From positions 927,078-991,077 of the forward strand of contig JBFLYH010000002.1 of the NCBI GenBank assembly GCA_040756875.1: 64,000 bases of DNA, in the 5' to 3' direction. The DNA is from a candidate division FCPU426 bacterium (GTDB lineage: Bacteria; Oederibacteriota; JAAXVQ01; JAUVAV01). Shown here one piece after another: positions 27,001-33,000 of this stretch. The first letter of the stretch is position 1; every line of letters starts with the position of its first letter. Made by a program: the position numbers.

Positions 27001-30000
27001 GCGGATCGAGCTGGCCGGCCAGGGATTGCCGCGCGGCGAAGGCGTGGGCTTCGAAATATTCGACAAGCTGTCGCTCGGCGTGACCAACGAGGTGCAGCGC
27101 ATCAATTACCTGCGCGCCCTCCAAAGCGAACTGGAGCGGACCATCGAAGCCCTGGAACCCATCCAGAAAGCCCGCGTCCATCTGGTGCTGCCCCAGGAGG
27201 AGATGTGGTTCGAGGAGGATTTTAATCCCAGCGCCTCGGTCATGGTCAGGCTGAAGGGGCCCGGAACCCTCAACGCCCAGCAGGTCGAAAGCATCCGCCA
27301 CCTCCTGGCCAGCGCGGTCCGGGGGCTGGTGCCCGAACGGGTGACGGTCGTGGACACGCAGGGCAAGGTGTTGTCCGCAGGCGCGGACAATGACGCGGCC
27401 TTCGGCCTCAGCGACCGCCAGATCGCCTACCGCCAGAAAATCGAGAGCAACCTCAAGGCGCAGGCCGAGAGCCTGCTGGTGGAGATCCTCGGCCCGGGCC
27501 GGGCCGCGGTCCGGGTGCAGGCGGAAATGGATTTCAACCAGATCGTCAAGGAGCGCGAGTATTTCGAGCCCGTGGTCGGCCAAAAGGGGCTTGTGCGCAG
27601 CGAACAGCAGAACTCCGCGCAGACCGGCGAAGGCGCGCCTGCTCCGGCCGGTCCGGCCGGCACGGCCTCCAATCTGCAGGGATATCCGCCCTCCGGCGTT
27701 TCCACCGCCGGGAACGGCAGCAAAAAGAGCGAACGCATCATCCAGTATGAAATGAACCGCACGCACGAGCGGGTCACTTCGGCCGCGGGCACGATCAAGC
27801 GGCTGTCGGTCGGCGTGTTCATCGACGGAAACCAGACGCCCGAGCGCTTGAGCGACATGCAGAGCGTGCTGGTGCGGGCCCTGGGCATCGACCCGGAGCG
27901 CGGGGACCTGATCGAAGTCCGTGCGCTTCCTTTTGACCGGAAGGACACAAAGGAAGAACAGCAACTGCTGGAAAAATCGCAACGGGAAAAATTCTGGCTG
28001 ACGCTGCTGTCCTCCTGGGTGCCGCGGGGCGTGTTGTTTGCCGTGGCCGTCGCGGTGTTGCTGGCGGGCCTGGGCGTCCTGCGCAAGCAGGCGAGTTTGC
28101 CGCCCAATATGGGCGGCAACGGCCGCCCGGAGGATGTGAGCAGGCTGGAGCCGGATCGGGTGATGGAGATCATCCGCCAGCATCCCGCGGAAACCAGCCA
28201 GATCTTAAAACAGTGGCTCTCGTAGGCGCGCGGGCCGCATTCGGAACGGTGAGGGCAGCATGCCGCTGAACGAAGAACAGACCAAAGTCAATTTGAAGAA
28301 GGTCGCGATTCTGCTGACCCTGCTGGGCCGAGACGCCGCCCAGGAGATCATCCGCCATTTTTCGACGCAAGACATCGAGCGCATCGGCAAAGAGATGGCC
28401 AAAGGCAAGGAAATCAGCCGCGCCGAGCAGGAACAGGTGCTGCAGGATTTCCTGGCGGCGCTCAAGGACCGCAATTTTCCCCTCAAGAGCGGGATGGAAT
28501 ACGTGGAACAGGTGCTGGCGCCGGCCCTGGACCCGGACCGCGCCCAGCGTTTTCTGCGCAAGATCCACAGCCCTCGGCAAATCGCGCCTTTCGAGGAACT
28601 GCAGGAAGTGGAGCCCGAGCATCTGGTGGCCGCGGTGAAGGGCGAACATCCCCAGACCGTCGCCCTGGTGCTGGCCTCTTTACCCCGCGACCTCTCCGCC
28701 AAGGTGCTCAGGCAATTGCCGCAAGCGCTGCAGTCGGAGATCGTACGGCGGATCGCGCTGCTGGACCGCCAATCGCCGGATTTAAGCACCGTGCGGGAGA
28801 TCGAACAGCGCCTGTCGGCGCGCATCAAGCAGGAGATGGAAAAGCCCGAAATGATCCGGTTGGGAGGGGCCCAAACCACGGCGGACCTCTTCAACCTGCT
28901 GGAAAAAGACCTGGCCCATCAGTTGCTCGAAGGGCTGGAGGCCAAGCACGAGGACCTGGCCGCCCAGATCAAGGTCAAGATGGTGCGCTTCGACGATTTG
29001 ACCAAGCTGACCGACATGGAAATCCAGCGCCTGCTCAAGGAAGTCGAAACCCAGGACCTGGCGCTGGCGTGCGTGAAGCTCGACCCGCAGTTGTCGGACA
29101 TGATCTTCCGCAACATGTCCCACCGCGGCGCGGAAATGCTCAAGGACGACATCGAGGTCATGCAGAACGTCAAACCCGAATCTGTGCGGGCCTCGCGGCA
29201 AAAAATCGCCGATGTCATGAGGCGGCTGGACGAGGAAGGCACGATCATCCTCAACAAGCAGAACCTGGAGGACAACCTTGTCTAAGATTTTGAAAGCGCC
29301 CTCTGTCAGCGCCGAAGAGCGTCTGGTGCCGGTAGGTGGAGCCTGGCGGCTAGCGGGCCACGAAGCCGGGTCCGCCGCCCAGGCCGCGCCGGCCGAGGCC
29401 GTGGAAGCGGCGGCCAGCGCGCGCGCGCGGGAAAAGGAAGCTTTTGCGCGGGGGTTGCGCGCCGGACGCGAAGAAGCCCGGGCCGCCGCCTGCGCCGAGG
29501 ACGAGGCCGTCCGGGCGGTCCTGCAGCGGTTGGAGGACGAGCTGGCCGGATACTGCCGCCGGATCGAAATCAAGGCCGGCGATCTGGTGGCGGCCATGGT
29601 GCGGCGGATCGTGGGCGCCGCCGGCGGGCTTTCGCCCGAAGTCATCCAGCACAACCTGCGCAAGCTGCTGTCCAAGCCGCATGCGCCCGGCGAAATGCTC
29701 ACGGTGCGCCTGCATCCCGAAGACTACCGCCGCCTCGCCCCGCAGGGGGAGACGGCCCTTAAAAACCTCAAGCTGCAGCCCGATCCGGAAGTGGAGCGGG
29801 GCGGGTGCCTGATGGAGAGCCAGTTCGGCCTGCTTGACGCGCGGCTGGACACGCAACTGGAGGAGCTGGAGGGCGCTTTGCGCGCGCAGCTGGCGGCCGG
29901 ACATTCGCTGACCCAGGCCGCCGCCGGCGTGGAAGGAACGCCCGAAGTCCGGGCCGAAGGCCGGGTGACCAAAATCGTGGGCACGGTGATCGAATCCCAG

Positions 30001-33000
30001 GGCCCCAACGTGACCGTCGGCGAACAGTGCGACATCGCGCATCCTGCGGACGGCTCCCTGCACGCCGCGGAAGTCATCGGCTTCCGCGACGCCCAGGTGC
30101 TGCTGATGCCCTTGGGAGACGCCCGGGGGCTGGGGCCGGGACACCGGGTGATCGCCCGCGGGCGGCCGTTTACGCTGCAGGTCGGCCCCAAACTGCTGGG
30201 CCGCGTGATCAATGCCATGGGGCAGGCCATCGACGGGCGGGGCGCCCTGGAAGGCAGCGAGGCGGTCAGCCTGCACGCCCAGCCCAACAACCCCATGCAG
30301 CGCCTGCCCGTGTCCGCGCCGCTGTATACCGGCATCCGCGCCATCGACGGATTGCTGACCTGCGCCAAAGGCGGGCGCATGGGCATTTTCGCCGGCAGCG
30401 GGTTGGGAAAAAGCGTGCTGCTGGGCATGATGGCCCGCCGGACCCAGGCGGACGTCAATGTGATCGCCCTGATCGGCGAACGCGGCCGGGAGGTGCGCGA
30501 ATTCGTGGAGCGCGATCTGGGCGAGGAAGGCCTGCCCCGGTCCGTGGTGGTGGCGGTGACGTCGGATGAGTCGCCGGTGCTGCGGATCCGGGGAGCGCAG
30601 CTGGCCGCAAGCCTGGCCGAATATTTCGCGCGCCAGGGCCGCGACGTGCAATTCATGATGGATTCGGTCACGCGTTTCGCCATGGCGCAGCGCGAGGTGG
30701 GCCTGGCGGCCGGCGAGCCGCCCACGACCAAGGGGTATCCGCCTTCGACGTTCGCCGCGCTGCCCAAGCTGCTGGAACGGTCCGGGAATTTCGCGGACCA
30801 GGGCACCATTACGGGTTTTTACACGGTGCTGGTCGAAGGCGACGATCACGACGAACCCGTGGCCGACCACGTGCGCAGCATCCTGGACGGCCACATCATC
30901 CTTTCGCGGGCGTTGGCAAGCCAAAACCATTTTCCGGCCATCGACGTGCTGCGCAGCATCAGCCGGCTGAGCAAGCAGGTATGCAGCCCCGAGCAGATGG
31001 CCTGGGCCGGGCGGGTGCGCGACCTGCTTGCCACCTATTACGAAGCCCAGGATTTGATCAACATCGGGGCTTATGTAGCCGGCAGCAATCCCCAGATCGA
31101 CTTGGCCTTGCGTGCGATTGGCGACCTCAAGCGGTTTTTACGCCAGGGACTGGAAGAGAGCGTGCAGCCCGAAGCCATGTGGGGCACGTTGGAAGACATT
31201 CTCAACCGCCTCGGCGGTTGATTCCCGGGGGGGACAACATGCATCAGTTCCATTTTGGCCTTGAAACCCTGTTGCGCATCCGCCGGCGCCAGCTGGAGCA
31301 GGCGCAGGAGGAATTTGTCCGGCAGCAACAGGCCGTGATCCGGTGCGAAAGCGAACTTGAGCGGCAACACGCGGACCAGGCGCATCTGGAGGAGGAAGTG
31401 CGCGCCAGCGAAGGCCGGGAGGTGGAAGTGGCCCGCGCCCGCAATTACCGTGAGTACGGGCGCAGGCTTGCGGCCCGTCTGCTCGAAACACAGGAGCGGC
31501 TGTCCGCCGCGAAAGCGGAATTGGAAAAGCGCCGCCTACAGTGGATGGAAGCCCAGCAGACGGTCAAAACCCTGGAAGCGCTGCGCGAACGGCGCTACAC
31601 GGAATATCTCAAGGAAGCCCGCCGCGAAGAGCAAAACTGGCTGGATGAAGTGGCGCTGGCGTTCCGCAAAGCATTGCCCAAACACTGACGAACCGACCGG
31701 CCGCGACCAGGCCGTAAAAAGGAGCTGCAGATGGAAACCATGCCTTTGACGTCCTCCCTGCCCGCCACAGCGGGCGAAGCCCAATGGTTGGCCGGCCTGC
31801 TGTCCGAGGCTCAATCCGAAGCCACGGACGATCCGGGAGATCCCGAATTCGCGGCCGCGCTGCTGGCCAGCCTGCCCGCCGCCCTGCCCCAGGCCGGCGA
31901 GACGTTGCCGGCTTCGATATGGGCCGACATGCCGGCTGAAGCGGATTTGGCCCGTTTATTGGGGAACGAAGCGCTTGTGCCCGAAGGCGCCGCCAAAGAA
32001 ACCCCTGCGCCTGCCGTGGGGCTGCAACCCGTCCTGCCGCCTGATCAGATGATTTGGCTGCCTACAACGGAATCCGCTGCCGTTGACGCCGCCGCCGGGG
32101 CATCTAGCGGGAACGAATCCGCAGTCGAAGCACCTGCAATTGCGGTCATGGCGGAGGTTGAATCCATAGCCAACGGCATGGCGGCGGACACCGCGGAGCA
32201 GGCGGTGGCGGATTCGACCCCGCGCCGCGTGCGGCCGGGATTGCGCATTTATGCGGATGCGTTTCCGCCGGGCTGGGAAACGCTGCTTGAGGAAAATCCG
32301 CCGGCCAAACCGGCCGCCCAGAATCCGGTAATGCCGGAGGTGCAGTCGGCGCGGGAATCCGGGGGCGCGGCCGTCGAAGCGGCGGAACCGCCTGCGCCCG
32401 CGCGCGAATCTTTCAAAACGTACGCCAGCCCGAAGGCCGAAGAGGGGAAGAACTTTGAACGCATGCCTGCGGCTGCGGCCGGCGCAGACGCGGAATCCAA
32501 AACGCGGGCCGAAAACGGACAAACCCGCGCTATCACGCCTTCGGATCCCGAACCGGCCCCCAATGACGATGCCATGGAAGTGAACACGGCCTGGAAAACC
32601 GAAGTCACAGTTTCAGGGCGGGCGGCAGGCCGGGAAGCGGCGGCTTCGCCGGTCCAGACATTGTCCCGCCTGAGCGAATTGGAGAAACAGCTGTCGATTC
32701 GGGAATTCACCACCCAGACGGCGGCCGGTATCCGCCGGGGAGAGGAACGCATCAGCGTGGATCTGCATCCGCCGGAACTCGGAAGGGTGCGGGTGGTGGT
32801 GGAAAGCCGCGGCGAACAGGTGCACGCCCAATTGACTTTGCAGGATGCGGGTGTGGGTGAATTTTTCCAGGACCGCCTGGAAGGGATCAGGCGGCAGTTG
32901 TCCGAGGCCGGCATCAAGCTCGGACAGTTGACCGTGGAAGTCAGGCAGCAATTTGCCAGCGGCACGCAAAACGGATCGGGAAGCCGGGAGCAAGACTACT

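Follow-up and report, generated by a model that had tools for sequence, protein, structure and literature searches.

Core features of export in both flagella and injectisomes are taken to include the FliH2-FliI unit and the FliH12-FliI6-FliJ ring, FliH being seen as the anchor of the ATPase and as a block on premature ring formation. In the rotary eukaryotic V-ATPase, three stalks sit on a six-membered head, and the E and G subunits pair as a mixed stalk. FliI has two FliH-binding sites and FliH dimerizes through residues 101-140, as described in the available portions of the pertinent papers (PMC9114704, PMC8041783). The available part of a further report (PMC6248999) describes 23 FliH spokes on one hub in Borrelia burgdorferi, modelled as dimers of FliH with six FliI. 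The FliH:FliI ratio of that motor in situ lies above 2:1, whereas the fusion described here allows at most 1:1. Fusions of b and delta are known in F- and N-type ATP synthases, and FliH is homologous to b+delta; the portion of that preprint available to us mentions no fusion of a stalk to a catalytic subunit (bioRxiv 10.1101/2021.01.01.425057). The b-delta proteins are fusions within the stalk, whereas here the stalk is joined to the catalytic subunit, the equivalent of b-delta-alpha/beta. The injectisome pair SctL-SctN (OrgB-InvC, EscL-EscN; PDB 6NJO) is a homologous stalk and ATPase.

The best sequence and fold matches of the fused protein are in the Salmonella complex (PDB 5B0O, 2DPY), with which it shares the domains, the P-loop, the order fliG-fliH-fliI-fliJ and most of a basic patch. 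It differs in being one chain, with no free FliH and with a decayed equivalent of the docking helix, and a 2:1 ratio is unreachable from the fused gene alone.

The fused gene and its flagellar island

We analysed a window of 64,000 nt from the candidate division FCPU426 bacterium GCA_040756875.1 (contig JBFLYH010000002.1, positions 927,078-991,077). Position 1 of the window is contig position 927,078, and features are given in forward-strand coordinates (Table 1).

Table 1. Features of the fused gene and of its flagellar neighbours in the window
Feature	Position	Strand	Remarks
fliG	28260..29285	+	overlaps start of fused gene by 8 nt
GGAGG, Shine-Dalgarno-like	29267..29271	+	within fliG end, 6 nt 5' of TTG start
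fused fliH-fliI gene	29278..31221	+	one stop-free ORF, 647 aa
N-terminal 20 residues	29278..29337	+	conservation 49% vs 23% in next 30
AxxxGxxxGxxxA motif	29440..29478	+	aa 55-67, inside long predicted stalk helix
FliH domain, Pfam PF02108	29506..29865	+	aa 77-196
junction	29866..29958	+	aa 197-227: end of last FliH helix, short loop, remnant of FliI N-terminal helix, invariant Glu227
in-frame TTG (Leu201)	29878..29880	+	strong SD-like stretch before it; possible internal start for free FliI; not conserved
FliI ATPase part	29959..31218	+	aa 228-647: beta-barrel, nucleotide-binding domain, C-terminal domain
fliJ (central shaft of ATPase ring)	31239..31688	+	directly after fused gene
fliM	38090..39058	+	without the usual N-terminal CheY-docking peptide
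fliN	39069..39617	+	expected docking partner of FliH tip
flhA, sigma-54 response regulator, fliA	42885..47834	+	flhF/flhG absent from usual place

The FliH half comes first and an intact FliI ATPase second, in a single frame with Pfam domains of both, as an earlier note on this DNA had claimed for an ORF between fliG and fliJ. The start codon is a TTG that overlaps the fliG stop; this overlap and the GGAGG within the fliG end make translational coupling likely, and a strong Shine-Dalgarno (SD) sequence precedes the true start in all 11 fused loci scored. The FliH domain scores 66.3 bits with PF02108 (cut-off 24.1), and its limits agree with the earlier ones; the FliI half has a beta-barrel (aa 230-294), an ATPase domain (352-562) and a C-terminal domain (570-639), filling the 230-639 given before, with an intact P-loop (aa 373-379) and catalytic motifs. 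With the FliI/YscN family model TIGR01026 the protein scores 580.2 bits (cut-off 379.5), and its best model is FliI clade 2, TIGR03497, at 585.7 bits, below the equivalog cut-off of 629.8. Identity with injectisome SctN was rejected: TIGR02546 gives 548 bits, less than the FliI models, and the surrounding island is a complete flagellar one that includes flagellin, hook and stator genes. A fold search with a model of the junction returned matches to the beta-barrel throughout (5b0o_A: Z 11.9, rmsd 1.8, 70 aligned). The full-length predicted model is weak, with mean pLDDT 63, pTM 0.53 and no domain packing.

The earlier note had also listed a missing FlhF beside the fusion. The absence stands, as no SRP54-family GTPase was found in this genome. 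A connection between the two was rejected: SRP54-type GTPases are absent from all 15 genomes of the class, flagellated or not, so the missing FlhF is uninformative about the fusion.

Distribution of the fusion and state of the docking helix

The fused gene holds the sole FliH match and the sole FliI of this genome. A FliH profile run against the six-frame genome gave a next match of only E=0.11, and there is no spare gene between fliG and fliJ. Stop-free fused matches at 51-61% identity occur in six other genomes of the class (in G002 the contig ends at residue 484), making seven of 15, and each of the seven has one FliH match, located inside the fused frame. The same seven genomes, from two families, carry flagellin, so that every flagellated member has the fusion, as had been stated before.

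The fusion is not confined to the class, outside which its distribution had not been established. A related second flagellar island with a fusion is present in four genomes of another class of the same phylum, and 46 full-length Desulfobacteraceae-like protein clusters contain a FliH-FliI fusion. A single origin of the latter and of this lineage's fusion is rejected (AU p=7e-7; both phylogenetic trees were quick searches), and by this sequence comparison the Desulfobacteraceae-like fusion evolved separately. Its context is given by one fused locus among 80 (L066), in which fliJ and flgD follow and the upstream side ends at the sequence edge. Finally, P0026 (632 aa, three members), for which no loci were found, is the one fused example resembling SctL-SctN. 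Our further literature search, like the earlier ones, found no report of a natural FliH-FliI fusion.

Several candidates were dropped. The long open frames in G015, G016, G017 and G070 proved to be shadow frames of GC-rich DNA, FliH being encoded in a different frame or beyond a stop codon; among 23 proteins taken from the 150 matches listed, most of those spanning the junction are single, frameshifted-looking fragments; and the cluster P0016 contains separate Gracilibacillus FliH and FliI. One 676-aa member is also found in that cluster.

The three kinds of fusion differ at the junction. Measured between the FliH GGC motif and the first glycine of the beta-barrel (G), it spans 53 residues in this lineage (all seven proteins scored by script; 52-53 in aligned loci), 43 in the sister island and about 64 in the Desulfobacteraceae-like proteins. 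Only 9-10 residues of predicted helix remain at the junction of the window gene, and no part between the domains is less conserved than the linker, at 28% identity. Counting related, not independent, sequences, we found the hydrophobic triad of the docking helix (positions G-17/-14/-10) complete in one of this lineage's 14 fusions and in none of five sister-island fusions, where 10 residues are deleted. Unfused FliI have it complete in 29 of 34 cases from the phylum and in 47 of 53 others. The amphipathic FliH-binding helix, normally a free N-terminus, has thus decayed in the fused FliI half of this lineage. It is retained in 45 of 47 Desulfobacteraceae-like sequences, so helix loss is no general outcome of fusing.

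The basic patch, mapped through the 5b0o alignment, has Arg or Lys at the positions of Salmonella R26, R30, R76 and R93 in 14, 10, 10 and 10 of the 14 fused sequences, respectively. In the Desulfobacteraceae-like fusion the R30 and R76 positions are basic in none of 47; however, Ser already occupies the R76 position in the nearest unfused proteins (L067-L069, L071), which weakens the case that fusing caused this loss.

That the fused frame stems from misassembly, or from a stop codon lost recently and neutrally, is scarcely credible. In the phylum a single stop is often all that separates fliH from fliI in the same frame, and sporadic read-through products such as P0016 occur in the protein collection. 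Against this stand the fusion in seven of seven flagellated genomes of such divergence, the decayed docking helix, the invariant Glu227 and the fixed junction length; near-constant length in sequences so divergent excludes sequencing error. This conservation refutes both explanations, and the sequence comparison confirms the fusion as real and long fixed in the class.

Stoichiometry and possible assemblies

Separate genes able to supply two FliH per FliI, as in the canonical FliH2-FliI complex, were not found: there is one ORF and no second FliH. The 1:1 ratio claimed in the earlier note therefore holds at the gene level, whereas for the assembled machine we infer it. The stalk half begins with a conserved segment that is a candidate FliN/FlhA-docking tip, followed by a predicted stalk helix of 74 residues (aa 39-112; conservation 35%), whose GxxxG motif is present in all 10 proteins of this lineage examined. 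Complex prediction with two copies of residues 40-300 scored 0.18 (mark 0.42).

We give about even chances to the following arrangement. A single chain would serve as both the FliH peripheral stalk and the FliI export ATPase of this flagellum, the covalent link taking the place of the helix-in-FliH contact, so that FliH:FliI is 1:1. The fused chains are predicted to hydrolyse ATP as the usual homohexameric ring around FliJ, while their six FliH halves would pair neighbour with neighbour through coiled coils and hang the ring from the C-ring on three stalks, not six, a geometry suggested by arithmetic and the retained motifs. Each subunit probably retains one FliH head on the beta-barrel's basic patch. 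In place of the free FliH2-FliI carrier of Salmonella there would be a fused-chain dimer, and the FliH brake on early ring formation, acting through the docking helix, would be lost or changed. By analogy with Borrelia, which already shows variation, the stalk count need not follow simple pairing. More tentatively, and at somewhat worse than even chances, stalk-ATPase fusions may have arisen independently at least three times in type III export, here yielding a three-stalk, three-fold ring of chain dimers that lacks both carrier and brake and breaks the 2:1 ratio. The proposed ring would look similar to the V-ATPase and mimic its stalk geometry.

Other assemblies can be built from the same chain. 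Twelve chains per motor, as six dimers with one ATPase in the ring and the other kept outside it in reserve or to carry substrate, would preserve the six-stalk geometry of the Salmonella injectisome and fit the carrier role of non-ring FliI, as far as these are described in the available portions of the reports (PMC6248999; PMC9114704, PMC7911332), and the basic patch for the second FliH head is retained in 10-14 of 14 sequences. We regard this as unlikely, as it would double the ATPase cost, and the sister-island junction, 10 residues shorter, would leave little room for two arrangements of the chain. Appreciably less probable is a monomeric FliH half, or one paired with an unrecognised partner (compare V-ATPase E and G), giving six single or mixed stalks: homodimerization is a prediction and the stalk helix is poorly conserved, but neither the six-frame profile search nor the fliG-fliJ interval yielded a second member, and the GxxxG pairing motif is retained.

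The gene could also give several products, namely FliI from an internal start, FliH by frameshifting or early termination, or both by cleavage of the poorly conserved linker. The SD energy at TTG 29878 (-9.8) matches that of the true start (-9.3), and 27-28 codons before G the window gene and two of six other class loci have a codon able to start translation, preceded by a strong SD, comparable sites being those in L004 and L007 (three of 11 loci in total). Some free FliI may thus be made. However, the site is missing in the remaining eight loci, in-frame start codons with SD <= -6 number 1-11 per gene as a background level, and coding for the Glu-rich helix itself generates GGAGG. Programmed frameshifting to free FliH was rejected for want of a conserved slippery site: no canonical slippery heptamer lies near the junction in the seven loci of this class, and the heptamers in two of 11 loci, neither in this class, are in different places. 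Nor would internal starts or cleavage lift FliH:FliI above 1:1; the earlier note had suggested that an internal start or proteolysis could yield free FliH, but an internal start frees FliI, itself without the docking helix, and cleavage leaves 1:1, so 2:1 is restorable only by early termination or selective decay. We consider several products improbable, slightly less so than the monomeric or mixed stalk.

Implications

This lineage builds its flagella from a gene unable to supply the 2:1 ratio, and evolution has arrived at a fused stalk-ATPase on more than one occasion, the junctions differing. The three natural junctions are ready designs for probing the need for a second FliH, a free carrier and the inhibitory contact. 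A tethered FliH-FliI may also ease imaging of the intact stalk-plus-ring, which is presented only as a model in the literature found. If the three-stalk reading is true, this is a working flagellum that departs from the 2:1 rule, with stalks arranged like those of the rotary V-ATPase.

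The fused gene and its distribution

A single open reading frame of 647 codons makes up the gene. It starts at a TTG with GGAGG 6 nt upstream and shares its first 8 nt with the end of fliG, and fliJ starts 17 nt past its stop; this frame and the Pfam domains of both halves bear out the earlier note, which had described one FliH-then-FliI ORF between fliG and fliJ. The catalytic motifs are intact. The protein scores above the FliI/YscN family cut-off (NCBIfam), with FliI clade 2 as the top model but below that model's own cut-off, and its closest solved structures are Salmonella FliI in 5B0O and 2DPY; database annotation of such proteins is plain FliI. 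FliH is matched once in the genome, a custom profile giving no further hit below E=0.11, and FliI is likewise present once, the remaining tblastn matches being only 26-29% identical. The surrounding flagellar island is complete from flgF to fliA, including L- and P-ring genes, flagellin and stator.

A stop-free match covers both halves in 7 of the 15 class genomes, the six apart from the window genome showing 51-61% identity and the one in G002 breaking off at a contig end. The same seven have FliH, in one copy and always within the fused frame, and the same seven have flagellin, in agreement with the earlier claim that every flagellated class member carries the fusion. Since the carriers belong to both families, and one 100%-complete genome from the window's own genus lacks flagellar genes, the island has either moved or been lost repeatedly. 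Chemoreceptor domains occur in all 15 genomes, including the 8 without flagellin. A public record labelled Candidatus Goldiibacteriota (locus L021) encodes a fused protein 58% identical, and a junction profile yielded ten fused clusters in the protein collection.

The fusion is not confined to the class, given four fused loci in another class of the phylum and Desulfobacteraceae-like fusions. FliI matches occur in 71 of 99 phylum genomes; among 39 loci inspected outside the class, 35 are unfused and 4 fused (genomes G087, G091, G092 and G093). FliH is matched twice in each of these four: a free copy sits in an ordinary cluster, and a fused copy in a second, sister island. These genomes contain two flagellar systems (loci L043-L046, L147, L149). 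Gene order from flgB to fliM is identical in the sister and window islands (the G087 stretch stops at motA), and in G092 and G093, as in the window, a sigma-54 regulator and fliA come after flhA, flhF and flhG being absent between them. A Glu directly precedes the first glycine of the FliI beta-barrel in 14/14 fusions of the window's lineage and 5/5 of the sister island; it is found in 0/34 unfused FliI of the phylum, and in 0/12 and 1/53 in other unfused sets. ATPase-part trees place the two as sisters (SH-aLRT 98 with 52 rows and a long-branch warning; 84 with 69 rows). These comparisons suggest that they likely share one origin.

A junction-spanning profile was run over 1.84 billion representatives; 150 proteins were listed and 23 of these inspected. 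Starting from protein P0014 (656 aa), 47 proteins were retrieved, of which 46 are full-length FliH-FliI fusions of 631-662 aa; related named records are two Desulfobacteraceae MAGs and one Desulfatitalea MAG, and the others were placed as Desulfobacteraceae-like through similarity. Eight of them form a clade nested amid unfused FliI, with strongly supported branches around it, and constraining them together with the phylum fusions was rejected in a quick tree (AU p=7.35e-7). One of 80 metagenome loci has such a fusion followed by fliJ and flgD. P0026 (632 aa; its three members come from public assemblies) combines FliH-family and ATPase domains, scores highest with SctN, and is probably an SctL-SctN fusion; a search for its genomic context found no loci. 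Because the single grouping is rejected and P0026 is SctN-like, the fusion arose at least twice in flagella and probably once more in an injectisome-like system. In agreement with the earlier note, full-text literature searches turned up no report of a natural FliH-FliI (or SctL-SctN) fusion, including in bioRxiv 10.1101/2021.01.01.425057, PMC5706428, PMC7911332 and PMC6248999; supplements and most subscription journals lie outside this scope, and a mention may be missed. Flagellar genes were noted in Goldbacteria, FliH and FliI being absent from the main text (PMC7031533).

Other features of the island and genome

Coordinates of features in the window and in the fused protein
Feature	Position	Remark
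Fused fliH-fliI gene	29278-31221 (+)	
FliH domain	aa 77-196	Pfam
Three FliI domains	aa 230-294, 352-562, 570-639	Pfam
Methyltransferase, glycosyltransferase, TPR genes	11360-19827	between flagellin and fliD
102-nt unit, three tandem copies	36842-37171	between motB and fliL
FliM	38090-39058	N-terminal acidic peptide absent
PilZ protein	48211-48951	in flagellar island
MoxR AAA ATPase, DUF58, two VWA proteins, BatD-like, SH3/TPR genes	52703-61247	

The N-terminal peptide of FliM serves in CheY docking. It is absent from the sister-island FliM of G091 and G092 and kept in three unfused relatives; the motor of the fused-type island may not be switched by CheY. The acidic peptide is lacking at fused-type loci L044, L046, L143, L144 and L146, and the window genome nevertheless has chemoreceptors and CheW. 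Two HDOD proteins also lie within the island. The genes between flagellin and fliD are likely a flagellin glycosylation block, and those beyond the island are a Bat-type cluster. In the tandem repeat, copies 1 and 3 are nearly identical and the middle copy about 80%; the unit was found nowhere else in the genome, and G005 has an insertion of about 11 kb at its position.

The reported lack of FlhF extends further: the window genome has no SRP54-family match at all, so that Ffh and FtsY are missing along with FlhF, and no small SRP RNA was found in it. SRP54-family matches occur in 0/15 class genomes, flagellated and non-flagellated alike, versus 79/99 in the phylum. Phylum families f4-f7 gave weak or no matches, and f3 FlhF-strength matches only. 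The signal recognition particle seems to have been lost in several lineages of the phylum; a literature search found nothing on this.

Junction and assembly

In Salmonella, FliH dimerises via residues 101-140; one of its heads contacts helix 2-21 of FliI, the other a basic patch (R26, R27, R30, R33, R76 and R93), and the hold on the helix suppresses ring formation, according to PMC9114704 and PMC8041783. We mapped the docking sites via a 5b0o alignment onto 165 sequences with sufficient sequence before the P-loop (14, 5 and 47 fused; 34/35 unfused phylum and 65/79 unfused metagenome loci). The hydrophobic face of the helix is complete in 1/14 fusions of the window's lineage (seven have Pro at one position), 0/5 of the sister island, where 10 residues are missing, 45/47 Desulfobacteraceae-like fusions, and 29/34, 11/12 and 47/53 unfused FliI. 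The patch is retained in the window's lineage (R26 14/14; R30, R76 and R93 10/14 each). The spacing between the GGC motif of FliH and the barrel glycine is 53 residues in this lineage, apart from a single 52, and 43 in the sister island; among the Desulfobacteraceae-like fusions it ranges over 54-68 and is mostly 64. All these counts concern related sequences and so no independent events. Length counts for more than sequence in the linker, since the distance is near-constant, yet linker identity among seven fused sequences is 28%, against 52% and 62% in the flanking domains. The full-length AlphaFold model (mean pLDDT 63) has a 74-residue stalk helix; in this and a second model (77.5) the last FliH helix (191-206) is followed by a short loop, a 9-10 residue helix and the barrel. 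The stalk motif is kept in 10/10 proteins of the lineage.

There is one chain with no spare FliH, intact catalytic motifs, a kept stalk motif and a decayed docking helix. We infer, with about an even chance of being right as a whole, that the covalent link would replace the helix contact with FliH; six fused chains would form the ATPase ring round FliJ, their FliH halves pairing into three stalks that extend to FliN, and the soluble carrier would be a dimer of fused chains. An arrangement of twelve chains per motor, half of the ATPases lying outside the ring, is unlikely, and monomeric or mixed FliH stalks are quite improbable.

Several products from the fused gene are rather improbable as well. 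Free FliI requires an internal start, and an in-frame TTG at 29878 does have an SD-like stretch equal in strength to that of the true start, with like sites in loci L004 and L007; however, 8 of 11 fused loci have no comparable site, and such SD-backed starts are common background. The earlier suggestion that an internal start could free FliH fails, as it gives FliI only; free FliH requires early termination, and slippery heptamers occur in 2/11 loci, at differing positions, and in none of the window's class. An internal start would lower FliH:FliI with no return to 2:1, and cleavage leaves it at 1:1.

That the fusion is an artefact is hardly credible: this variant of a known machine is real and conserved, and it has evolved repeatedly. 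The assembled architecture is one that we infer; the FliH-FliI fusion challenges the textbook stoichiometry and offers direct tests.
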